64,000 nucleotides of DNA from NCBI GenBank assembly GCA_036785375.1, contig JAWMAR010000168.1:4650001-4714000 (forward strand), written 5' to 3'. Shown here piece by piece: positions 2,936 through 44,050 of this stretch. Both the position numbers and the translations under genes were made by a program. Numbering within the stretch: the first letter of the stretch is position 1; each line of letters starts with the position of its first letter. Source of the DNA: Leucoraja ocellata. Taxonomy: Eukaryota. The notes under the pieces are model-generated. The model searched no databases. It worked only from the letters and a program-made list of their open reading frames with translations, and was not told where the DNA came from.

Positions 2936-3088
2936 TATACAGCAGCAATATTCCCCATACCAATTTCATCATTCTGCTATAACCATGTGATATATTTTAC
3001 TCAAATATACTTTTAGATTTAGACAAAATGGTAGATCAAATTATGGAGGCTTAATAAGACCTCAGGAGTTGATATCGATGGAAATTAC

Positions 3089-3222
3089 CTGCAGTCTTGA
3101 ATCCCGATGCCTTGTCCAACCTTCTGGAAGCCACGAGGGCAGAAGAGATTTTGGCTTATCGCACAGGAGGTACAAGCTGTGGCCAACAACAACTCTAGCT
3201 GCTCGTTGCAATGTTGCCGTTT
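3089..3222 (-). CDS. STAB1: Stabilin exon 2, N-terminal Cys-rich region: KRQHCNEQLELLLATACTSCAISQNLFCPRGFQKVGQGIGIQDC(R)
   Basis: Acceptor ccacttAG (3223-3224), donor GTAATT (3088-3083), 134 nt, phase 0/2. The C-x11-CTSCA-x7-CP-x-G...QDCR pattern matches my recollection of the STAB1 N-terminus (CTSCAAIKKQTCPSGW...QDCR). STAB2 is not excluded. Not in the ORF track in this frame. Confidence 0.85.
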
Positions 3223-6294: not shown

Positions 6295-6387
6295 CTTCTG
6301 TCTCTCGGCAGCCCCGGGGCAATGAGTAACCAGCTGGACAAGCAACAGCAGCAGCGCTGCACAAAGCGAGGAGTTGACACTTTCCAT
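6295..6387 (-). CDS. STAB1: Stabilin coding exon 1, signal peptide MESVNSSLCAALLLLLVQLVTHCPGAAERQK
   Basis: Strong Kozak (aacATGg), hydrophobic h-region, AAG|GTAAG phase-0 donor at 6294; joins in frame to the exon at 3089-3222 (intron 3223-6294). Confidence 0.85.
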
Positions 6388-19019: not shown

Positions 19020-21341
19020 CCTTGAGCATCCAGTCATCCCGGCTTGGAGAGAACCTACAATCCTGCTTTGACTGCATGGATTGGAATGTGTTCAGGGAAG
19101 CAACCACAAGCCTCGATGAGTATACGGACACTGGATCATCCTATATCAGCTTTTGCGAGGCCAGTTGCATTCCAACTAAGACTCGGACCTGGTTCAACAA
19201 CAACAAGCCCTTGTTTACTGCAGAACTCGGGCAGCTCCGACGGTCTAACGATGAGGCCTACAGGATCGGGGATGCAGACCTCAGCCCAAGTACAAGCTGA
19301 GAAGAGGAATCAGAGCTGCCAAGGAAGTTGAGGAGCAAGTTCTCAGCTAGTGACTCTTCTTCAGTTTGGAAGGGCTTACAAGAAATTACCAGCTACAAGA
19401 GGAGATCCCCCCACTCTTTGGACAATCGTCAGCTGACCAACGACCTGAATGAGTTTTACTACAGATTTGAAAATCAGAAACGTAATCCTGGTCCCCCCCT
19501 CCCCCCTCCCCAACCAACACAGCCAGACCCCAGTCTGCAAAGAATGGACCCTGCACCCTCTCCTTCCCATTCACCACTTCACACCTACCTACTTAAGTCA
19601 AGACTCCAGTATGAAGCGACTGGACCATTTCCCACCCCAACCAACACTTCACACCCACTCACAGCCTGACCTCAGTCTGCAAAAGACTGGGCCCTTCTAC
19701 ACCCACCTCCCCCCCCCCCCCCCTCCAATCACCACTTCACACCCAATTACCCACACCCTCCTTACTGAACAACATCACTTCATCAACAATAAAAATAGAG
19801 GAAGTGGAGAGGCTTTTCAGAAGACAGAAAAGCGGGAAATCTCCAGGACCAGACAATGTTCCCACTCTACTCTCAAGCTCTGTGCCAAACAACTGACTTT
19901 ACAGGCATACAGGCATGTTTAACCAATCCCTGCAAACATGTACTGTCCCTGCCTGCTTCAAAGTCTCCACTATTGTCCCTGTACCCAAAAAGGCAAGGAT
20001 TATTTGTCTTAATGACTACAGGCCTGTCACACTGACCTCTATAGTCATGAAGACACTCGAAAGGCTTGTGTTGGCCAAGCTGAAAACTATCACGATCCCC
20101 CTGCAGGACCTTATGCAGTTTGCATATCGGGCAAATAGATCAGTGGATGATGCCGTCAACCTGGGCCTGAACTTCATCCTCCAGCACCTAGACCGCCAGG
20201 GGACCTATGCGAGGATCCTGTTTGGTGATTTTAGCTCTGCATTCAACACCATTGTGCCAGAGCTACTACACTCCAACCTTTCCGAGCTGACTATGCCTGA
20301 ACCCCTCTGTTGGTGGATTACCTGACAGACAGGAAGCAGCATGTCAGGCTGGGAAAGCACATCTCGGACCCACAAACGCTCACCATAGGAGCACCGCAAG
20401 GCTGCGTACTCTCCCCTCTCCTCTCCTCTCTCTACACCAATGACTGCACCTCCACAGACACCTCTGTCAAGCTTCTTAAGTTTGCGGACGACACTACCCT
20501 GATTGGACTGATCCAGGATGGGGAGGAATCTGCCTACAGACAGGCAGTGACACAGCTGGTGCCATCGCAACAACCTGGAGCTCAATGTTCTTAAGACAGT
20601 GGAATTGATTGTAGACTTTAGGGTAGTTTCCCCTCCCCTCACCCCACTCACCATCAACAACACCACAGTCACATCTGTGGAGTTTTTAAGTTTCTGGAAA
20701 CCATCATCTCCAAGGACCTAAAGTGGGAGGCCACCATCGACTCCACAGTCAAAAAGGCACAACAGAGGATGTACTTCCTGCGGCAGCTGAGGAAACACAA
20801 TCTGCCACAGGCAATGACGGTCCAATTCTACATGGCCATCGTTGAGTCTGTTCTCACCTTCTCCATCATGGTCTGGTTTGGCTCAGCCACCAAGCACGAC
20901 ACCTGGAGGCTGCAGCGAATCGTCCGATCAGCTGAGAAGGTTATTGGCTGCGACCTTCCCTCCATTGATGAACTGTACACTGCAAGGGCCAGGAAGCGAG
21001 CGGGCAAGATCATCTCTGACCCCTCTCACCCTGGCCACAAACTCTTTGAATCACTTCCCTCTGGAAGGCGACTCCGGACTATCAAAGCTGCCACAGCCAG
21101 GCATAAAACAGTTTTTATCCACGAGTAGTTGCTCTACTCAACAGCCAAAAATCTGTAGCCTCCCTTTGATCTGGTATTTTGTTGGTTCACATGCTTGATC
21201 AATGGTGTTTTATTATTATTAATGTTTAGTGTTTTGAGTCATTTGTAACTGTCATTGTATGTCATGTTGTTACTTGTGGGCAGAGCACCAAGGCAAATTC
21301 CTTGTATGTGAATACTTGGCCAATAAACTGACTTACTTACT
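19020..21341 (+). mobile_element. Rex1/Babar-type LINE, 5'-truncated, frameshifted
   Basis: [76 protein letters not shown]; (TTAC)n tail. Confidence 0.92.
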
Positions 21342-24149: not shown

Positions 24150-27100
24150 TTATTCTAGACTGGGTATTGAGTAATGAGGAAGGGTTAATTAGCAGTCTTG
24201 TTGTGCGTGGCCCCTTGGGCAAGAGTGACCATAATATGGTTGAGTTTTTCATTAGGATGGAGAGTGACATTGTTAATTCAGAAACAAGGGTTAATTCAGA
24301 AACAATGGTGACTTTGAGGGTATGAGACATGAATTGGCCAAGATAGACTGGCAATTGATTCTTAAAGGGTTGACGGTGGATATGCAATGGAAAACATTTA
24401 AAGACTGCATGGATGAACTACAACAATTGTTCATCCCAGTTTGGCAAAAGAATAAACCAGGGAAGGTAGTGCATCCATGGATAACAAGGGAAATCAGGGA
24501 TAGTATCAAAACAAAAGATGAAGCATACAATTTAGCCAGAAAAAGCAGCCTACCAGAGGACTGGGAGAAATTCAGTCCAGCAGAGGAGGACAAAGGGCTT
24601 AATTAGGAAAGGGGAAATAGATTATGAAAGAAAACTGGCAGGGAACATAAAAACTGACTGCAAAAGTTTTTATAGATATGTGAAGTGGAAAAGATTAGTA
24701 AAAACAAATGTACGATTTGATCATGGGGAACAAGGACATGGCAGACCAATTGAATAACTACTTTGGTTCTGTCTTCACTAAAGAAGACATAAATAATCTG
24801 CCGAGAATAGCAAGGGACCGGAGGTCAAATGAGATGGAGGAACTGAGTGAAATCCAGGGTAGGCGGGAAGTGGTGTTAGGTAAATTGAATGGATTAAAGG
24901 CCGATAAATCCCCAGGGCCAGATAAGTTCAGATTCAGATTCAATTTTAATTGTCATTGTCAGTGTACAGTACAGAGACAACGAAATGCATTTAGCATCTC
25001 CCTGGAAGAGCGACATAGCACATGATTTGAATAAATAATAATAAGTGTCCGGGGGGCGTGGTGATTGGCAGTCACCGAGGTACGTTGTTCAGTAGAGTGA
25101 CAGCCGCCGGGAAGAAGCTGTTCCTCGACTGCTGGTTCGGCAACGGAGAGACCTGTAGCGCCTCCCGGATGGTAGGAGGGTAAACAGTCCATGGTTGGGG
25201 TGAGAGCAGTCCTTGGCGATGCTGAGCGCCCTCCGCAGACAACGCTTGCTTTGGACAGACTCAATGGAGGGGAGCGAGGAACCGGTGATGCGTTGGGCAA
25301 TTTTCACCACCCTCTGCAATGCCTTCCGGTCGGAGACAGAGCAGTTGCCATACCATACTGTGATGCAGTTGGTAAGGATGCTCTCGATGGTGCAGCGGTA
25401 GAAGCTCACCAGGATCTGAGGAGACAGATGGACCTTCTTCAGTCTCCTCAGGAACAAGAGACGCTGATGAGCCTTCTTGATCAGAGTAGAGGTATTGTGG
25501 GTCCAAGAGAGGTCATCGGAGATGTTGACTGCCAGGAACCTGAAGCTAGAAACATGTTCCACCTCCGTCCCATTAATGTGGATGGGGGTGTGCGTGCCGC
25601 CTCTGGACTTCCTGAAGTCTACAATGATCTCCTTGGTCTTCTTGGAGTTAAGGGCCAGGTTGTTGTCAGCGCACCATGTTGCTAAGTGCTGGACCTCCTC
25701 CCAGTTGTATCCCAGAGTACTTAAGGAAGTAACCCCAAATATAGTGGATGCATTAGTGATAATTTTTCAAAACTCTTTAGATTCTGGAGTAGTTCCTGAA
25801 GATTGGTGGGTAGCTAAGGTAACACCATTTTTTAAAAAGGGAGAGAGAGAGAAAACGGGGAATTACAGACCAGTTAGTCTAACATCGGTAGTGGGGAAAA
25901 TGCTGGAGTCAGTTATTAAAGATGGGATAGCAGCACATTTGGAAAGTGATGAATTCATTGGACAAAGTCAGCATGAATTTATGAAAGGTAAATCATGTCT
26001 GGCGAATCTTATAGAATTTTTTGAGGATGTAACTAGTAGAGTGGATAAGGGAGAACCAGTGGATGTGTTATATCTGGACTTTCAGAAGGCTTTCGACAAG
26101 GTCCCACATAAGAGATTAGTATACAAACTTAAAGCACATGATATTGGGGGTTCAGTATTGATGTGGATAGAGAACTAGCTGGAAGCAAAAAGTAGGAGTA
26201 AACGGGTCCTTTTCAGAATGGCAGGCAGTGACTAGTGGGGTGCCACAAGGCTCAGTGCTGGGACACCAGCTATTTACAATATATATTAATGATCTGGACG
26301 AGGGAATTGAATGCAACATCTCCAAGTTTGCGGATGACACGAAGCTGGGGGGCAGTGTTAGGAGGATGCTAGGAGGCTGCAAGGTGACTTGGATAGGTTG
26401 GGTGAGTGGGAAAATGCATGGCAGATGCAGTATAATGTGGATAAATGTGAGGTTATCCACTTTGGTGGCAAAAACAGGAAAGTAAGACTATTATCTGAAT
26501 GGTGGCCGATTAGGAAAAGGAGAGATGCAACGAGACCTGGGTGTCATGGTACACCAGTCATTGAAAGTAGGCATGCAGGTGCAGCAGGCAGTGAAGAAAG
26601 CGAATGGTATGTTAGCATTCATAGCAAAAGGATTTGAGTATAAGAGCAGGGAGGTTCTACTGCAGTTGTACAGGGTCTTGGTGAGACCACACCTGGAGTA
26701 TTGTGTACAGTTTTGGTCTCCTAATCGGAGGAAAGACATTCTTGCCATAGAGGGAGTACAGAGAAGGTTCACCAGACTGATTCCTGGGATAACAGGACTT
26801 TCATATGAAGAAAGACTGGATAGACTAGGCTTGTCCTCGCTAGAATTTAGAAGATTGAGGGGGGAATCTTATAGAAACTTACAAAATTCTTAAGGGGTTC
26901 GACAGGCTAGATGCAGGAAGATTATTCCCGATGTTGGGGAAGTCCAGAACAAGGGGTCACAGTTTAAGGATAAGAGGGAAGTCTTTTAGGACCGAGATGA
27001 GAAAATCATTTTTTACACAGTGGTGAATCTCTGGAACTCTCTGCCACAGAAGGTAGTTGAGGCCAGTTCATTGGCTATATTTAAGAGGGAGTTAGATGTG

Positions 27101-28931: not shown

Positions 28932-30041
28932 ACACAAAAATGCTGGAGAAACTCAGCGGGTGCAGCAGCATCTATGGAGCGAAGGAGATAGGTAACCTTT
29001 CGGGCCGAAACCCTTCTTCAGACTGATAGGTGGGAAAAAGGGAGGAGGAGGAGCCCGAGGGCTGGGGGATGGGAGGAGACAGCCCGAGGGCTAAGGAAGG
29101 GGAGGAGACAGCAAGGGCTAACAAAATTGGGAGAATTCAATGTTCATGCCCGCCGGATGCAGGCTCCCCAAGCGGAATATGAGGTGCTGTTCCTCCAATT
29201 TCCGGTGTTGCTCACTCTGGCAATGGAGGAGACCCAGGACAGAGAGGTCGGATTGGGAATGGGAGGGGGAGTTGAAGTGCTGAGCCACCGGGAGGTCAGG
29301 TAGGTTCTTGTGGACCGAGCGGAGCTGTTCGGCGAAACGATCGCCCAACCTCCGCTTAGTCTCACCGATGTAGATCAGCTGACATCTAGAGCATCGGATG
29401 CAGTAGATGAGGTTTGAGGAGATACAGGTGAACCTCTGTCGCACCTGGAACGACTGCTTGGGTTCCTGAATGGAGTCGAGGGGGGAGGTGAAGGGACAGG
29501 TGTTGCATTTCTTGCGGTTGCAACGGAAAGTGCCTGGGGAGGGGGTGGACCGAGAGGGAAGGGAAGAATTGACAAGGGAGTTGCGGAGGCAGCGGTCTTT
29601 GCGGAAGGCAGACATTGGGGGAGATGGGAAGATGTGGCGAGTGGTGGGGTCACGTTGGAGGTGGCGAAAATGATGTAGGATTATTTGTTGTATGTGACGG
29701 CTGGTGGGGTGAAAGGTGAGGACTAGGGGGACTCTGCCCTTGTTGCAAGTGCAGGGATGGGGAGAGAGAGCAGTGTTGCGATATATGGAAGAGACCCTGG
29801 TGCGAGCCTCATCTATGGTGGAGGAGGGGAAACCCTGTTCCCTGAAGAATGAGGACATTTCAGATGTGCTGGTGTGGAACGCCTCATCCTGGGAGCAGAT
29901 GCGGCGTAGACGGAGGAATTGGGAGTGGGGGATGGAGTCCTTACAGGAGGCAAGGTGGGAAGAAGTGTAGTCCAGATAGCCATGTGAGTCAGTGGGTTTG
30001 TAGTGGATGTTGGTCAGGAGTCTATCACCTGCGATGCTGCG
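28932..30041 (-). mobile_element. Penelope-like element, 5'-truncated; RT C-terminus, Cys linker and GIY-YIG endonuclease (ORF 29118-29858)
   Basis: RVPLVLTFHP, CNRKKCNTC, NLIYCIRCSRCQLIYIGETKRRLGDRF, VAQHFN, GMNIEF; 3' hammerhead-like CTGAAGA-AGGGTTTCGGCCC-GAAA; 14-bp TSD ATGTGTAGGGTAGT. Confidence 0.92.
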
Positions 30042-31221
30042 ATGTGTAGGGTAGTGTTAGTGCGCGGGGTTCACTGGTCGGGGCGGACTCGGTGGGCAGA
30101 AGGTCCTGTTTCCACTCTGTATCTCTAAATTAAACTATAATTTCCCTAGTGATCTTGTGGGTGTCCTCCAGGCGCTCTGGTTTCCTTCCACATCACAAAG
30201 GCATGCACGTTTGCAGGTTAATTGGCTTCTGTAAGTTGCTACTGGTGTGGAGGGAGTGGACAAGAAAGTGGGATAGCATTGAACTTGTGTGTATAGGGGG
30301 TCGATGGCGTGCACTCTGTGGGTCAAAGGTCCTATTTCCATGTTGTATCTCTGAACAAAACTACCAAGTGTACTTACCAAGAACAGATGGAGAAACCAGT
30401 CTGTCACAAAGCAGAATGAACTCCTGATCAGTACACACAATGCACATGGGTGGACACTTTCATTCATCTCCGGCTTAACAAGCACCACCTGTCATTACTT
30501 CATATAATGTACAAGTAATTGGGGCAGCAATTTATGTCAACAGACAAATGCATTCAACTTTAAATAATTAAATGCTCTAATCTCTGTACAAAACCATTAA
30601 TCTTTTGAAGTGGCTGTGGTGATTTTGTTTATTCATCATTTAATCACAAAATATGTGGGCGTCATTGGCCTGGTCCACATTTAATGCCCAGCTCTTGTGT
30701 ACCTAATTATTAGAAGCAACCTACATTTGCAACATTTCTTTCTTTCCATGTAATATTAAAATTAAATACTACACTTAAAATATTTATCTTCCATGCTGTT
30801 GTGGCATATGACAAACATTGATTTCTGAAAATTGTCATTCAGCACAAACTAATTCCGACAACATCCTTTGTATACTTAAAGATGGAAGCAAGCATCCAGG
30901 GGAATACCGTTTGGCTGATTTGTCTGAACTTATCAGGTCTCACTTCAATCACCTTAAGAAGAGAATGTTAAACTTTGTTTCTCTTGTTTGTAATGGTTTA
31001 TAATGAGTATTGATTAATTAGTGGTTAATTTTCCTCTATCAAACTAACATTGGTGGGACTAAGGGGCAAAAAAATTTGTTCGGCACGGACTTGTAGGGCC
31101 GAGATGGCCTGTTTCCGTGCTGTAATTGTTATATGGTTATATGGTTATTGACTATCTATATAATATTACACTCTGAGAGTGTTCAATAATTACTCAATCA
31201 ACTTATACCAACTTATACCAT

Positions 31222-37139: not shown

Positions 37140-38490
37140 CATAAAACATAGAATGCTACAGCATCGGAACGAGTCTTTTATCCCAAGATGTCTGTGCCGA
37201 ACATTATGCCAAATTAAATTAACCCCTTCTGTCTGTACTTCATTTTTATTTCTCCATTCCCAGTATTTTCATGTGTCTATCTTTAAGCTTTCTAAACACC
37301 ACCATCGTATCTGGGCTCCCATCACTATGTGAAATAAAACCTGCCCACACTTTACCTTTAAACATTTCCACCCTCACAAACCCCCTCCCACCATCATCTT
37401 AAAGCTATCGCATCCAGAATTTGACATTTCCACCCTGGGAAAAACAAGATTCTGACTGTCAAGACTTTTCATATGCCTCTCATAATGTTATAATCTCTCC
37501 TCAGCCTCCGATGCCCCATAGAAAACCATCCAGGTTTGTGCAACCTCTCCTATAGTTAATATTCTCTAATCCAGGCAGCATTTTGGTAAACAACCAAAGC
37601 CTATACATCCCGCCTGTCGTGGGGCAACCAATATTGTACACAATACTCCAAATGCAGTATAATTAAAGTTTTATAAAGCCGCAACATGACTTAACTCTGG
37701 TCTTCACTGCACTGACTGATGAAGGCAAACATACCATAAGCATTCTTTACCATTCTTTCTGCCTGCGTTGCTACTTTCAGGGAGCTACGGACCCCAAGGT
37801 TCCTCTGTACATCAATGATGCTAAGGATCTCACCGTTAACTATATACTTTCCCTGTACATTTGACCTCCAAAGTGCAACATCTCGCAATTGCCAAGATTA
37901 ACCTCCATCTGTTATTTCTCCCCCCATGTCTGTAACTGATCTATATCCCAATGTTACCCTTTGTCAGCGTTCTTCGCTGTCTGCAAATCCACCCATTTCT
38001 GTTTTATCTACAGACTTACTAACCAACCCATCAACTGTACATTTTCATCCAAGTCATTTATATACATACATATACATATATCTTTATTTATACATAGAAC
38101 AATAGTCCCAGCACTGATCCATGTAGAACACCACTGATCACAAGCCTCAATTCAAAATTACACCTTTACACACAATCCACTATATTCTGAAGAGTATGAA
38201 GAAGGGTCTCGACCCAAAACGTCGCATATTCCTTCTCTCCAGAGATGCTGTCTGACCCACTGAGCTACTCCAGCTTTTTGTGTCCATCTTGGGTTTAAAC
38301 CAGCATCTGCAGTTCCTTCCTCCACCTCCATCTTTTAAGACAGTTCTGAATCCGAACTACCAAGTCACTGTGGGTCCCCTGCTTCTTAATTTTCGGGGTC
38401 AGCCTACCATGAGGGATTTTATGCCTTACTAAAGTCCATGTAGACAGCATCCATTGCACTACCCTCATCAATCACCTTTGTCTCCACCTC
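37140..38490 (-). mobile_element. Old CR1 fragment with Penelope unit at ~38195-38322 (+)
   Basis: VQRNLGV...VKNAYGMFAFI; acacaatactccaaatgc (HLEYCV antisense). Confidence 0.7.
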
Positions 38491-39059
38491 AGTGTTTCAG
38501 TGAGCTTTCAGCAACAGACAGACTAAGGAAGGGACAGATTCAATAATTGCTGCCGAGATGACTTCTAAACCATTCTGGCATGAGATTACAGTATCGTTAG
38601 GAACGTACTCCACTCCTCTATGTTACTTAGCTCCTTCGCAACACAGCATGCATCTATCTGTATGTAGAAGATCAAATAAATAGGTGCCATTTGGTTCCAC
38701 TTAACTCGATGTCCATATCCACTGTCCAATTAATTGGTATGAAACAGAGCTTAGAATTTGTTCCTGAAGATCATTCCCAGCAGATAAGTGAAAGAATGTC
38801 AGTAACGATAAACAATTGTGGTTCCTTCGAATCAAAACAAGGCTATTAACAACCAAGCTCTTAAATAAGGAAATCCTTTTATATAAAACGAAGAACTCAC
38901 ACAGTTTCAAAGGAAGAAGTGAACATGCATTTATACAGAGTTTTTTCTACTTTGCAAATGGCAATATCATCTAATTTTCATTGCGGGTAAAGACTTGATT
39001 ACAGAACTAGGATGAATCTCTTGTAACTCAAAGAACTACAGATGCTGGAGATCTTCACC

Positions 39060-40250
39060 CTTCATTCTCACCAGGTGCTTTCCACAGCAACCGCTGGAGG
39101 TGTAACACCTCCCCCCTCGTCTCCATTCAGGGACCCCGATAACCCTTCCAAGTGAGACAGTGATTTACGTGTATATCTTCCAACCTTGTCTATTGCGTCC
39201 GGCAATCTCGATGCGGCCGCCTCTACGTATCCGCCATGGCCTGTTGGAGCGCCAGAATGTCAGCCATTTTAACTCCTCTTTCACTCCCGGCGGGCCTCTG
39301 CGGCAGATGCCCCCCAGCGAGCTGCAGGGTCGGAGCCCGCGGCCGAGGTCAGAGCCTGCGGCGGTCGGAGCACGTGGCTGACGGAGTCTGAGTCAGCACC
39401 ACGTCAAGAACCCGCCCGGCAGTGAGAGTGGAGCGGTCGGTGTGGCGTCGACCGATGGACGAGGACAGGCCACGTGGATGTGGATGTGGACGCCGCTGCC
39501 GAGGGAAGGAACAATGGAGGCCCCGCCGTGAGGGGGAGAAGAAAGGGGTCCTGGTGCGGCTACTGTGTATACTTTGCAACATTGTCAGTGCTCTTATGTG
39601 GAGAGTATTTGCAAACCTTGCAAGCAAAGAATCTCACTATGACTTGTCACATGTGATAATAAAGTCTTTATTCATTCATTCATTCTTCCCCTTCCCAGAC
39701 CAACGTGTCTGTCCTCTGCCCCCTCCATCACCAGAGGGAGGCCACATGGACTTCAGTAATTCCAGCAACCCAGCAGCGTGAACATTAAATTCTGCAATTT
39801 CAGGTAAACTCTTCCCCTCCCCCCCACCCCCACCCCCATCCATCCCTCACCTACCCAGACCCCCCCCCAATACCACTGTGGGCTCATCGTTTTCTCCACT
39901 CCCCATCCCCACATCGGCCCCTTCCATTCCCCTCTATCCATACACCTCCCATGCCTCCCGACTCCATTCCCATTTGCCTCTCCTACCTCTCCTCTCCCTT
40001 CCACCCACTATCCCTCCCTCTGGTTTTACATTGCGCTCCCCATCTTCCTTCTTATTATATTCTCCACACTTGCACCCTTTGTCTCCACTTCACCTCCAGC
40101 CATGGTTACTGATCCACCCATCTGCCCTGCCTCATTTGAATCCACCTCTCACTTGCCTTTTCCTAACCCATCCCTTTCTCTCACCCCTTTCTCCCCTCCA
40201 CTTCATCCGTCTAAAGAAAGGTCCTGACCCAAATCTTCCGTCCCATTTCC
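39060..40250 (+). mobile_element. Degenerate Penelope-like GIY-YIG/3' region interrupted by a GC-rich retroelement end (~39285-39680)
   Basis: cccttccaagtgagacagtgatttacgtg...ccaaccttgtctattgc...cagccattttaactc; resumes ...gtgaacattaaattc. Confidence 0.65.
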
Positions 40251-40253
40251 CTT

Positions 40254-40475
40254 AATAATAATAATAATAATAATAATCTTATTTATATAGCACATTTTCA
40301 GTCAACTTGCATTGACCCCAAAGTGCTTCACATAATTACATTACATTACACACAGGCAAAGGTGGGTGAAGTGTCTTGCCCCAAGGACACAACGACAGTA
40401 TGCACTCCAAGCGGGATTTGAACCGGCTACCTTCCGGTCGCCAGCCGAACTCTTAGCCCATTGTGCTATCTGTCG
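40254..40475 (-). mobile_element. tRNA-derived CORE-like SINE with L2-type tail
   Basis: A-box TAGCACAATGG, B-box GGTTCAAATCC, core gtgtccttggggcaagacacttcacc, tail gtgaagcactttgg...gtgctatataaataaa(tta)n. Confidence 0.85.
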
Positions 40476-40930
40476 TCCCTTCACAAATGCTGAGTTCCGC
40501 CAGTGCCGTTTTTTGCTGGAATCACTCAGCAGGTCAGGCAGCATCTGTGGAAAGTGAAGCAGAATTAATGTTTCAGGTTAAAGACTCTTCCTCAAAACTG
40601 AAAAGTGAGGACAGTTATTGGGAGGTAATAGAGAGGATGGATAAAACAAAAGGAATGTGACTGAAGGCATGTGACCAGGGTTGATGTATGGTTTATGAGG
40701 TGAGAGGGTAATAGACAGAGATTGTGAAATGCAGGTCAGAGTTGTTGCAGAGAACTGAAAGCAAAAGGAGAAGTTGGATCAGACTGTGTGTGTGGAAAGA
40801 GTAATATTACAACTGCACAGCCTTACAGCAGAACTGGAGAGAAGTGTAGATATTGTTAAATTTGACAATAGATCCTGAAGACTGCAATGTGCCCAGATAA
40901 GGCATGTTTCTCATTTTCACATCTACACAC

Positions 40931-41065
40931 CTTCTTGCGTATGGCGTGCACAACCTAACATTGTAGGACAACTTGTTCTATTTGATCTTATTTGATTGTG
41001 CACGCCGGGTTGGTTGCTTTCGTCAAAACAGGGCGGACCACGTGAAGGTTGCAATCTCCCACCCC
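40931..41065 (-). mobile_element. Short non-autonomous element with 5' HDV-like ribozyme fold and GCAAGAAG tail
   Basis: P1 GGGGUGG/CCGCCCU, P3 ACC/GGU, L3 UUCACGU, J4/2 CGAA, partial P2; downstream 11-bp stem GGCGTGCACAA/TTGTGCACGCC. Confidence 0.65.
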
Positions 41066-41594
41066 GGGATCTCAGGCTTACGTTGGGTCTCGTTAGAATT
41101 GTCCAGAAGCCAGAGATAGTCAGGGGGGGAGTAGGAAGAATTTACCTGATGGGCAACTGAGAAACTCAGAGTCACCCTGAATATCACTTATTACTCAGCA
41201 GGTCAGGCAGCATCTCTAGAGATAGACATAAAATGCTGGAATAACACAGCGGGACAGGCAGCATCTCTGGAGAAAAAGAATGGATGACGTTTGGGGTCGA
41301 GACCATTCTTCAGACTGATTGGGGGGGGGGGGGGGGGGAGAAAGCTGGAAGAGAGATGGTGGCAGGACAAAGTCTGGCAAGTGCCTATCAACAACACAAT
41401 GCACACTGTCATCATTAGCATACGTGGTCCAACATTGGATTTTCCAGGTAACACTCAGGAAGGATAGATCAAGCATGATTGAATGTCGGAGTAGGCTCAA
41501 TGGGACGAATGGCCTAGTTCTGCTCCTATGATTTATGAACATGAATTTCCACTCCCATGTTTGGAGAAAAGTTCCTGGTACAAATAATGTTGGT

Positions 41595-41997
41595 TAAAGG
41601 GATCAGGGGTTTGGAGAGAAGGCAGGTACGGGATACTGAGTTGGATGATCAGCCATGATCATATTGAATGGCGGTGCATGCTCGAAGGGCCAATGGCCTA
41701 CTCCTGCACCTAATTTCAATGTTTCTATGTTTCTAAACTGATCCTTATGGGTGACCTCCATGTACTGCTCAGAAAGGACATAAACTTCTGGAGAAGTAGG
41801 TTTGACAAGTAAGAAAGAAGCAAAGCTCATTCCTCCTGGAAAATGAGCGTGTCACCCAAAGCCTGTACACCCAATAGACAATAGGTGCAGGAGTAGGCCA
41901 TTGGGCCCCTCGAACCAGCAACGCCATTCAATGTGATCGTGGCTGATCATCCACAATCGGTACCCCGATCCTGCCTTCTCCCAATATCCCTTGACTC
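41595..41997. mobile_element. Two convergent CR1 3' tails (41595-41735 +, 41875-41997 -)
   Basis: Typical gatcagccatgatcatattgaatggcgg tail and its reverse complement. Confidence 0.75.
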
Positions 41998-42004
41998 CTG
42001 GGCC

Positions 42005-42230
42005 CAACAGGCTGAAGGTCATGAGGTAGAGAGTTTATCAAGATAACAAAGGCAATCAGTACTCACTGGAAGAAGCACTTTGAAGAACTCCACGATGAAG
42101 ACAGAATTCTTAATGCGGGCATCTTAGCCACCATTCCACACTGGCCAATACATCTGAGCCACCAGCCGAGAGATTGATAACACCATATGCCAATGCGAAA
42201 AAACATGAAGGCCTCAAAAGTAATTTTGAG
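42005..42230 (+). mobile_element. Ancient RTE-like LINE fragment
   Basis: Translation ISTHWKKHFEELH...LATIP resembles the RTE ORF motif RWKEHFEELLN. Confidence 0.4.
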
Positions 42231-43744
42231 AGTCAAAGAGTGTGCTGGGCAAGTTATGACTGGACATGACACCAGAAGGCCACGTACACCCCCGCTTAAC
42301 ATTCACAGTATTTATTTGCAGCAAGAACAGTTTGTAATGCCCAAAGTTCACTAATCACATGGTGTGCTCTATGGATCAGCAGAGAATCCTCACATTTACT
42401 TCCAAGTCTCTGTGTTTCAAGAGTCAAGAGTGTTTTATTGTTATTTACTGCACACTTATACTCCAGAGGGTTCTGGCATTTTCAGGGCGAAATGATAACG
42501 AGCTGTGATCATGATAACCTCATAATCCTGGACAAAATAGATCCTTTTTATATCACAAGCAGCAGCTCATTATTTATTCCCATTAGGCATTAAACTCACA
42601 ACTGAAATCACAGTTAAAACCTTGTCAAAGAATCAAGATCGGTCAAATTATTCTTAGCAGAGCCACACGTGTCATTAAGGTCGGTGATTGCTGAAGGGGC
42701 TAGGGTTGAGGTGGAGGAGGTTAGGGGGTGGGTGGCGGAGTAGGATAGGATCGAGGGAATGACATGCAAATACCTCGAGAGTTTACTTTTGCACTAAATC
42801 ATAAAGCAATTTTGGAAAATCATTTCTGCATGGAATGGGGGAAGGAGAGAAAATGAAAAGGATAAAGTAATCTGGTTTGTGGCAAAAATTCCAATGTTAT
42901 TGTTCATTCCAAACAGATTTGTATAATGACAGGACGTTATTACGAAACATGGTCAAGTTTCAATTTCAGAGAGAGGATGAAGCATTTTTGCTGAGTACCA
43001 GACATTAATTAGTCACGGACCATGAAAGATTTTATTGTGGACTGTCTCTTCTTATTTTTCACTTTCACATGCACATTTAATTTGATGATTATTGAAATCG
43101 GCATGACTTTACTGTGTAGAAATTCTTTCACATTGCTGAATCTTGTAATCTGCTGTGTGAAGGAATTTAATCTAAACCCTAAATACTGTTGGTGATCGGG
43201 GCTCTTTGCATGTGGTCCACAGGGTTTGCAAAATCCTTTACAATTCATAGGATCAGAGGAGATTTGCAATGTAGATGGTGGCCACTCAGCCCATCGTGTT
43301 TGTGCCAATGACAAAAATAACAACTCCGTCTCTTTGCACCTTCATGCTCGAAGTCCACAGCCCAGCAGGCCATTGCTTTTTAAGTGCCATCCACCCATTT
43401 TAGGAATTTGGAAATGTCATGTCTGCCACCCTTTCCCCCAGTGAGTTCCAGACTCCTACCACCCTCTGACTCAACCCCCCTATCACCATGCCAAATAGTT
43501 AATGGGCCTTGGCTTTTGACACATCTGTGAAGAGAAACAGGTTCTGCTTAAAACACTTCATTCACGGCTGCGTAATTTCAGTTGAGTCTCACTCGATTAC
43601 TCCTGTTCTCAAATAGAACCCCCGTCTATGCAAACATTCTTCACAGCTGAAATCTGCCAGTCCTGGCAACATCCTATCCTCTATCACCTCTCCTGTGTAA
43701 TAACACCTTTCCTGTAATGGGGTGACCAGAGCTGTTTGTAGTAG

Positions 43745-44050
43745 TTTGTTTTAGAGAAACAGCATTGAAGCAGGCCCTTCGGCCCACCAAGTTCACACTG
43801 TCCATCGATTATCCACTCACACCAGTTCCATTTTATCCCACTTTCTCATCCACTCCCTACGCATTAGGGGTCATTTATAGCACCCTACAAACTCGCAGGT
43901 CTTTGGGATGTGGGAGGAAACGAACTCCTGGAGGAAACACACGTGGTCATGGAGAGAATGTGCAAACTCCACACAGACAGCACGGATGGCCAGGATCAAG
44001 CCCGGGTTTCTGACATTGTGAGGCAGTATCTCCACCAGTTGTGCCATCCA
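43745..44050 (-). mobile_element. HE1-like V-SINE within ancient CR1 remnant (~43250-44430)
   Basis: gtgcaaactccacacagacagcac, tgtgggaggaaac. Confidence 0.75.

Follow-up and report, generated by a model that had tools for sequence, protein, structure and literature searches.

What kind of element is a 135-nt repeat that has the fold of a self-cleaving ribozyme at its head and no Pol III boxes, and how does it move? The question is raised by the minus-strand element at 40931..41065 of the window (the whole 64-kb stretch of skate DNA analyzed here; nucleotide p of the element is window position 41066-p), which a sequence-only reading took for a SINE-like element with an HDV-like ribozyme in place of a tRNA head. 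Our answer is that the repeat quite probably consists of the two ends of a ~3.1-kb LINE, likely of the Vingi type, joined after loss of the middle, and that it likely spread by way of read-through transcripts, from which a predicted HDV-like ribozyme would release its 5' end before the LINE protein copied the product.

In the window copy, an HDV-like ribozyme fold occupies nt 1-54 (41012..41065; descriptor parse), with the cut predicted directly 5' of 41065. The 5' strand of P1 (41059..41065) pairs with 41036-41030, that is, nt 1-7 with nt 30-36, and includes the wobble G1-U36 as well as a second one, U5-G32, that was missing from the sequence-only reading. P2 pairs nt 10-16 (41050..41056) with nt 48-54 (41018-41012), with two mismatches in this copy, and P3 (nt 17-19/27-29) with its loop L3 (UUCACGU, nt 20-26) lies at 41037..41049. 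The fold is nearly P4-less (the P4 remnant has 6 nt), P1.1 comes down to a single possible pair (C22-G37), and J4/2 (CGAA, 41019..41022) holds the candidate catalytic C (C44) at 41022. All of these parts were found on the minus strand where that reading had placed them, and their order (P1, P2, P3, L3, P1', J1/4, J4/2, P2') is that of a nested double pseudoknot, as parsed by the descriptor with the two P2 mismatches. The G1 wobble at the predicted cut site, the 7-nt L3 and the candidate catalytic C in J4/2, features by which HDV-like ribozymes are recognized (see also PMC4908430), are all present.

The descriptor search proposed in the sequence-only reading, run on both strands with a descriptor written for this analysis, returned one site in the 64-kb window, and that site is the element (provided that two P2 mismatches are allowed); the fold is thus more than chance would supply. 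Rfam gave no ribozyme family at E<=10 over 38000-44000, a scan limited to the damaged window copy, and none of its five weak, unrelated matches falls on the element.

Behind the fold, nt 60-70 (40996..41006) and nt 113-123 (40943..40953) form a Watson-Crick stem of 11 bp in the window copy (the family norm is 10 bp), and nt 55-135 have a folding z of -4.59, with 0 of 200 shuffles folding as well. The perfect 11-bp stem was correctly seen, but not its nature: it is not a local hairpin, as its arms pair the two ends of a LINE. The 3' arm is followed by an AUACG motif and the tail, (AAG)2 (together 40931..40942), and AAGAAG is all that this copy has of a tail. The short element has no ORF, and the reported lack of Pol III boxes was borne out (no A box up to 2 mismatches, and one B-box-like 10-mer that appears only at 2 mismatches), although the element does contain an internal T4 run. 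We found no target-site duplication at the window copy or at its segmental duplicate L004, and no second copy of the element in the window. The window copy is a damaged one and is likely dead or weak.

The element is co-oriented with a stabilin gene, as had been observed, but ~35 kb separate it from the likely first coding exon (signal peptide; exon scan, 6295..6387, minus strand) and likely start codon, which lie downstream of it, so that membership in the stabilin transcript is unsupported. A second, Cys-rich exon (exon scan, near 3088-3222, minus strand) joins the first in phase. Initial scans for stabilin motifs gave no match and looser ones gave these two exons at the low end of the window, which we take, from their motifs, to be those of stabilin; farther along the minus strand of contig C168, about 105 and 200 kb beyond that end, there are matches of the stabilin type to EGF and FAS1. 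The window region and the stabilin gene are included in inverted duplicates of ~97% identity (C168, ~3.39-3.62 Mb and 4.45-4.69 Mb), and as similar pairing is seen for many loci, both haplotypes may be present in the assembly. Fragments of other LINE-like RT or retroelement ORFs occur in the window at 19798-20501, 25663-26350 and 29118-30056.

The element is a dispersed repeat and not a single-copy sequence. Its 19-nt core has 7,969 exact matches in its own genome, a count to which LINE 5' ends and duplicated regions contribute (among 72 sampled copies, 8 pairs share a flank), and the reversed control has none; the copy number is in the thousands. In a search of the same genome that gave 1,693 candidates, the 40 that were scored are 94-100% identical. 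Family features were read from 80 copies picked by the core 19-mer from the first 100 matches listed, all on contig C1, with most of one tandem cluster left out. (A cluster on this contig, G000:C1:19261563-19431506, with ~19 core matches, mostly ~2 kb apart, in two oppositely oriented blocks, is a tandem duplication that carries the element.) The copies have the marks that the sequence-only reading had predicted: a sharp 5' boundary at G1 with flanks that are unrelated between copies; (AAG)n tails, predicted as (GAA)n; and target-site duplications, which 53 of 72 copies carry, as compared with 13 of 5,092 pairs in the swapped-flank control. The duplications are ~12 bp long (8-16, mostly 12-13 with one mismatch allowed), and the 3' end, recognizable in 68 of the 80 sampled copies, is mostly at 131-135 nt.

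P2 is repaired to UGCAAUC, as predicted, in most copies: 23 of the closest 30 and 66 of the 80 core-picked ones. Every fold pair and core base is intact in 45 of the 80, and the fold is nearly intact in 56; U5 stands opposite G in 55 and opposite A in 25, both of which pair. Among 79 copies with an aligned P2, 73 keep the catalytic C. It is changed to T in six copies, and the neighboring G to A in another count of six. The change of the catalytic C is neutral CpG decay, and because it decays as fast as its tolerant neighbor (6 vs 6), inserted copies show no selection. Selection against active copies was considered and is rejected for now, given the symmetry of this decay.

Finding the source of the two ends required more than one search. 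A search from the 5' end with a pattern that excluded the tail gave 163 matches, and each of the 30 fetched proved to be a short or truncated copy. A search for 3' ends preceded by foreign sequence gave 122 matches, and among the 30 fetched were LINE 3' ends and short elements with other junctions; near full-length LINE copies were reached by walking on from the 3' ends. The parent is a degraded ~3.1-kb single-ORF LINE that has nt 1-77 and nt 100-135 of the element. The 5'-end part (40989..41065, minus strand) is 84-86% identical to the 5' ends of L151, L152 and L153, and the 5' arm of the stem is present in L151 and L153. The 3'-end part (40931..40966, minus strand) comprises the last ORF codons, the stop codon (40957-40955, by reading frame), the 3' UTR and the tail, and nt 95/100-135 recur at the 3' end of 27 of 30 LINE 3' loci at 82-92% identity. 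In L151 both ends lie inside one target-site duplication, with the element head at 84% over nt 3-77 and the last 41 nt and tail alike. The autonomous partner sharing both ends that had been postulated thus exists, although it is most likely a Vingi (Ingi group) and not, as had been supposed, an RTE.

Between the two parts is a junction filler (nt 78-99; 40967..40988, minus strand) that is absent from the LINE 5' and 3' ends. It appears to be a short tandem repeat of the 5' part plus the beginning of the 3' part in inverted orientation, and it folds as a local hairpin in copy L248. There are at least three distinct deletion junctions among the short elements, and elements with all of these junctions keep the ribozyme fold and the arm that follows it, together with the terminal ~36 nt and the tail.

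Because the ribozyme head is simply the 5' end of the parent, the element is a LINE with an internal deletion. The idea of a tRNA head replaced by a ribozyme must therefore be given up, and the element is not SINE-like in the strict sense (LINE-derived head, no Pol III boxes, no Rfam match). The description as a minimal non-autonomous retroelement stands, given the many copies, HDV-like head, tails, duplications and partner LINE, along with the missing Pol III boxes.

The translated parent copies are all broken by stops or frameshifts, and the clade was judged with the help of P0002, an intact related protein of 1,019 aa with 65% identity to the N-terminal piece of the parent. Its Pfam matches are to endonuclease and RVT_1 domains only, with no match to RNase H, and a Cys/His cluster is visible by eye at the C-terminal end. 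P0002 therefore has the layout by which Vingi is defined in section 5.1 of PMC13708176, as far as that text is accessible (single ORF, APE endonuclease and RT, no RNase H), and the parent's own layout fits the same description. In an RT tree, for which two loci from prokaryote contigs served as outgroups, the parent is inside a 100/99 clade of 19 rows, apart from five other LINE-like RTs. The same clade holds L188 and a second LINE family of the genome, and their 5' ends, compared by eye, closely match the Vingi-2_Gav 5' sequence printed in the accessible supplement of PMC5786205. We conclude that the parent is most likely a Vingi, a name that is likely rather than proven because the tree contains no named Vingi, Ingi or RTE protein. 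This same feature of the tree leaves room for assigning the parent to RTE or another single-ORF APE clade, and RTE elements have also been reported with 5' ribozymes and bipartite derivatives (PMC5786205, in part); given the layout and the company of LINEs with Vingi-2_Gav-like 5' ends, we consider such an assignment very improbable.

Some further observations concern the LINE copies themselves. Five of them (L096, L098, L104, L142, L145) have the 5' part inverted relative to the 3' part, as twin priming predicts. In L151, an AUG at element nt 47-49 (L151:4679-4681, minus strand) overlaps both J4/2 and P2. This AUG shares the reading frame of the ORF and precedes a second AUG by 20 codons; through it, folding of the ribozyme may be coupled to the start of translation. 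Beyond eukaryotic sequences, viral contigs yielded no relatives among 52 pattern matches. Four loci with LINE-like RT genes in prokaryote genome contigs (L316-L319) are probably eukaryotic contamination, and one of them, L317, has, by eye, a decayed HDV-like head.

The parent's HDV-like head has counterparts in related LINEs. In 76 related metagenome loci (623,742 nt, both strands), a strict descriptor gave five matches, three of which represent one family, and all of them are sense and 161-384 nt before the ORF match. Such matches fit the structure by construction, and it is their position that constitutes an independent test. With a relaxed descriptor, 8 of 23 upstream regions score >=12.6, whereas in the antisense control (311,871 nt) none of 70 matches is above 12.4; the other 15 upstream regions have no match, and several of them are truncated or decayed. 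A full P4 is present in related LINEs, and the helices P1, P2 and P3 differ in sequence among them as L3 and J4/2 stay alike.

In the skate genome, a second core pattern gave 63 more sites, which include one family of full-length LINEs, with a real P4, and one short family nearly without a P4. The former (L321, L336, L346, L347; e.g., C82:979142 onward) is a second Vingi-like LINE family, ~3.1 kb long and little broken, with a full-P4 HDV-like head, a perfect 9-bp 5'-3' duplex and AAG tails; its L3 is identical to the element's and its P3 is different. The second short family (~145-170 nt; L320, L322, L323, L325, L326, L329, L332, L333) combines an HDV-like head lacking P4 with paired ends and AAG tails. 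Judged by these predicted structures, Vingi-like LINEs of several lineages start with HDV-like folds of differing sequence. A further variant of the head, with its own P2/P4 sequence and no ORF match downstream, occurs in L348 (G000:C185:90785 onward).

Does the fold act, or is it carried along? If it were a passenger in an element of the same origin, an internal promoter would set the 5' end (as Pr77 does in L1Tc/NARTc), and the P4-less fold would cleave poorly or not at all in vivo. The reduction of P4 to 6 nt and of P1.1 to one pair would suit this explanation, as would the dual role of the 5' end in the sister clade, where it doubles as a promoter (PMC3383444, in the part accessible). RNA data bear on it as well. 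In poly(A) RNA-seq of a relative (run X23, of which about 6% was read), 941 reads in both mate directions were placed on L248, and at no position, G1 included, do many molecules begin, as a passenger fold would lead one to expect; 278 of the 941 run past the 5' edge with foreign sequence upstream. By this pattern, the family occurs in poly(A) RNA as part of longer transcripts, and nothing points to cutting. As evidence against efficient cleavage of most copies this is only weak, because the strands were pooled (first mates split about 350 vs 228 by strand) and cut products may be lost.

Other evidence makes a passenger fold improbable in our judgment. The 5' edge of the element is G1 of the fold, and thus coincides exactly with the predicted cut site. 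The helices have been swapped wholesale across lineages, but the pairing, L3 and J4/2 persist, and a P4-less version with different helices occurs in the second short family.

We therefore return to self-cleavage followed by copying in trans as the preferred explanation. A source copy would be transcribed by Pol II from outside, as read-through, which we infer from the missing Pol III boxes. The ribozyme would then cleave before G1, giving an exact 5' end, and the arms would pair, joining ribozyme and tail into a structure that the LINE protein could bind. The endonuclease would nick the target and the RT would prime on the AAG tail. Target-primed reverse transcription is established for non-LTR elements. 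Speaking against this explanation are the lack of an Rfam match, the lack of a pile-up at G1, the decay of the catalytic C at the rate of its neighbor, the weak end pairing of two families, a mismatch in the parent's duplex, the lack of named proteins in the RT tree and the broken state of the parent copies.

The arms deserve separate consideration, as the 5' arm comes from the start of the LINE and the 3' arm from its 3' UTR, and they are ~3 kb apart in the parent. The same end pairing was first seen by eye in L170, L183 and L196 and then, after the idea was noted, found in two further families of the skate genome and in L171 (for which the ribozyme was parsed by eye). For a quantitative comparison, the 22 nt after P2 were paired with the last 22 nt in seven families, four of them noticed by eye beforehand. 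Loci were left out when the 3' end was unlocated (L168, L188-190, L198, L203, L234), when the head or end was decayed or cut (L160, L161), when the locus was a near-copy of another (L195, of L196) or when the ends are in different copies (L184/L204/L235). Cognate ends pair with a mean of -13.2 kcal/mol, versus -6.6 kcal/mol for non-cognate ends, and the true assignment of ends is the best of 5,040 permutations, a rank that is uncorrected for relatedness among the seven families. An AYACG-like motif directly after the 3' arm, followed by the tail, is present in 7 of 7.

The pairing is strong in some LINEs, in which few internal windows pair as well as the ends (L153, 2 of 371; L336, 7 of 270; L170, 0 of 281), and weak in L183 and L196 (38 of 273 and 32 of 271). 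In the decayed parent copy L151, 33 of 239 internal windows pair as well as its ends. Among the seven families, there is one whose 5' arm forms a better duplex with foreign 3' ends than with the cognate one. In the short copies, 9-10 of the 10 stem pairs are present in 41 of the 58 with the arm located (it was not located in 22 of 80); at position 61, 36 of the 58 have G-C, and 15 have the A-C mismatch of the parent.

We tentatively suggest, as a possibility that falls a little short of probable, that RNAs of Vingi-type LINEs contain a conserved two-part cis-element, in which an HDV-like ribozyme is followed by an arm that would pair with the 3' UTR ~3 kb away, making a panhandle beside the priming tail that the protein could bind as a joined structure. 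End complementarity might instead be a by-product of insertion chemistry or base composition, with no function as an RNA duplex. This we consider unlikely, if not strongly so. The set amounts to seven families, of which four were seen by eye first and two pair weakly, and LINE copies are mostly 5'-truncated (1,012 candidates, against 61 for full ones), as a by-product would allow, although truncation can follow priming. A by-product would not readily account for the fixed register, 4-6 nt after P2 and directly before the AYACG-like motif, or for the G-U pairs and bulges, which suit RNA pairing; furthermore, the three families added after the idea was noted pair too, and both arms are kept in all short derivatives.

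If the panhandle forms as suggested, it would explain why this clade yields elements made of both ends, the 135-nt repeat would be a natural minimal template, and the genome would hold thousands of potentially active self-cleaving RNAs. An issue raised as open in the accessible part of PMC5786205 is why only RTE, Ingi, Vingi and R2 yield bipartite non-autonomous elements, and the long-range duplex, if it holds, would answer it. There is also a practical side: Vingi-1 is in use for RNA-templated gene writing, with both UTRs present in the donor RNAs (PMC13708176, in part), and a natural template of 135 nt would, if these points hold, show what may be the minimal parts for Vingi-type movement. 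In addition, a 54-nt HDV-like fold is available in this genome in thousands of natural variants.

The ribozyme-headed short retroposon is already known as a class. What may be added here are ribozymes at Vingi 5' ends and the long-range 5'-3' duplex, recurring with different sequences in seven families. Neither a Vingi ribozyme nor such a duplex was found stated in the article texts searched, and Ruminski 2011 and Kojima 2011 may cover the ribozyme; the accessible part of PMC5786205 does not list Vingi 5' ribozymes, and some metazoan LINEs and SINEs are described as using hammerhead or HDV-like ribozymes (PMC6765202, in part).

How, then, does the skate element compare with known systems? SINEs with tRNA, 5S or 7SL heads resemble it in size, tail, target-site duplications and dependence on a LINE, but the skate element has no small-RNA head or Pol III boxes, and both of its ends come from one LINE. 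With regard to the fold, the minimal P4-less HDV-like ribozymes of Riccitelli in 2014 reportedly come from the human microbiome and have a core of about 50-55 nt, with P4 a short loop. They share the small, P4-reduced core, whereas the skate fold heads a high-copy retroposon.

With regard to the whole element, the shared LINE ends place it with short internally deleted elements such as RIME, NARTc and R2 SIDEs, and not with Pol III SINEs. It is a bipartite non-autonomous LINE, a kind already described in the accessible parts of PMC5786205, PMC3414825 and PMC4035085. The R2 SIDEs and R2/R1 hybrid SIDEs of Drosophila likewise combine a 5' ribozyme with the parent's 3' end and are moved in trans by target-primed reverse transcription (PMC3414825, in part), but R2 uses a restriction-like endonuclease and inserts only into 28S rDNA, and the SIDEs are rare, whereas the skate element is dispersed and abundant. 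Vingi-1_EE and the bipartite RTE elements (RTESINE1/2, WALLSI3, Bov-A) also arose by internal deletion of a single-ORF LINE with both ends kept (PMC5786205, in part), and the skate element probably belongs to this class. RIME (from ingi) and NARTc (from L1Tc) of trypanosomes, together with SIDERs, are likewise short and non-coding and combine the two ends of an APE-type LINE; the head of RIME/NARTc is an HDV-like ribozyme that is active in vitro (PMC4035085, in part), and Ingi is the sister clade of Vingi (PMC13708176, in part). No 5'-3' duplex like that of the skate element was found described for RIME or NARTc in the accessible texts. The skate element differs from them further in that it resides in an animal genome in thousands of copies, is only 135 nt long, ends in an (AAG)n tail, derives from a parent without RNase H and begins with a 54-nt fold that is nearly P4-less.
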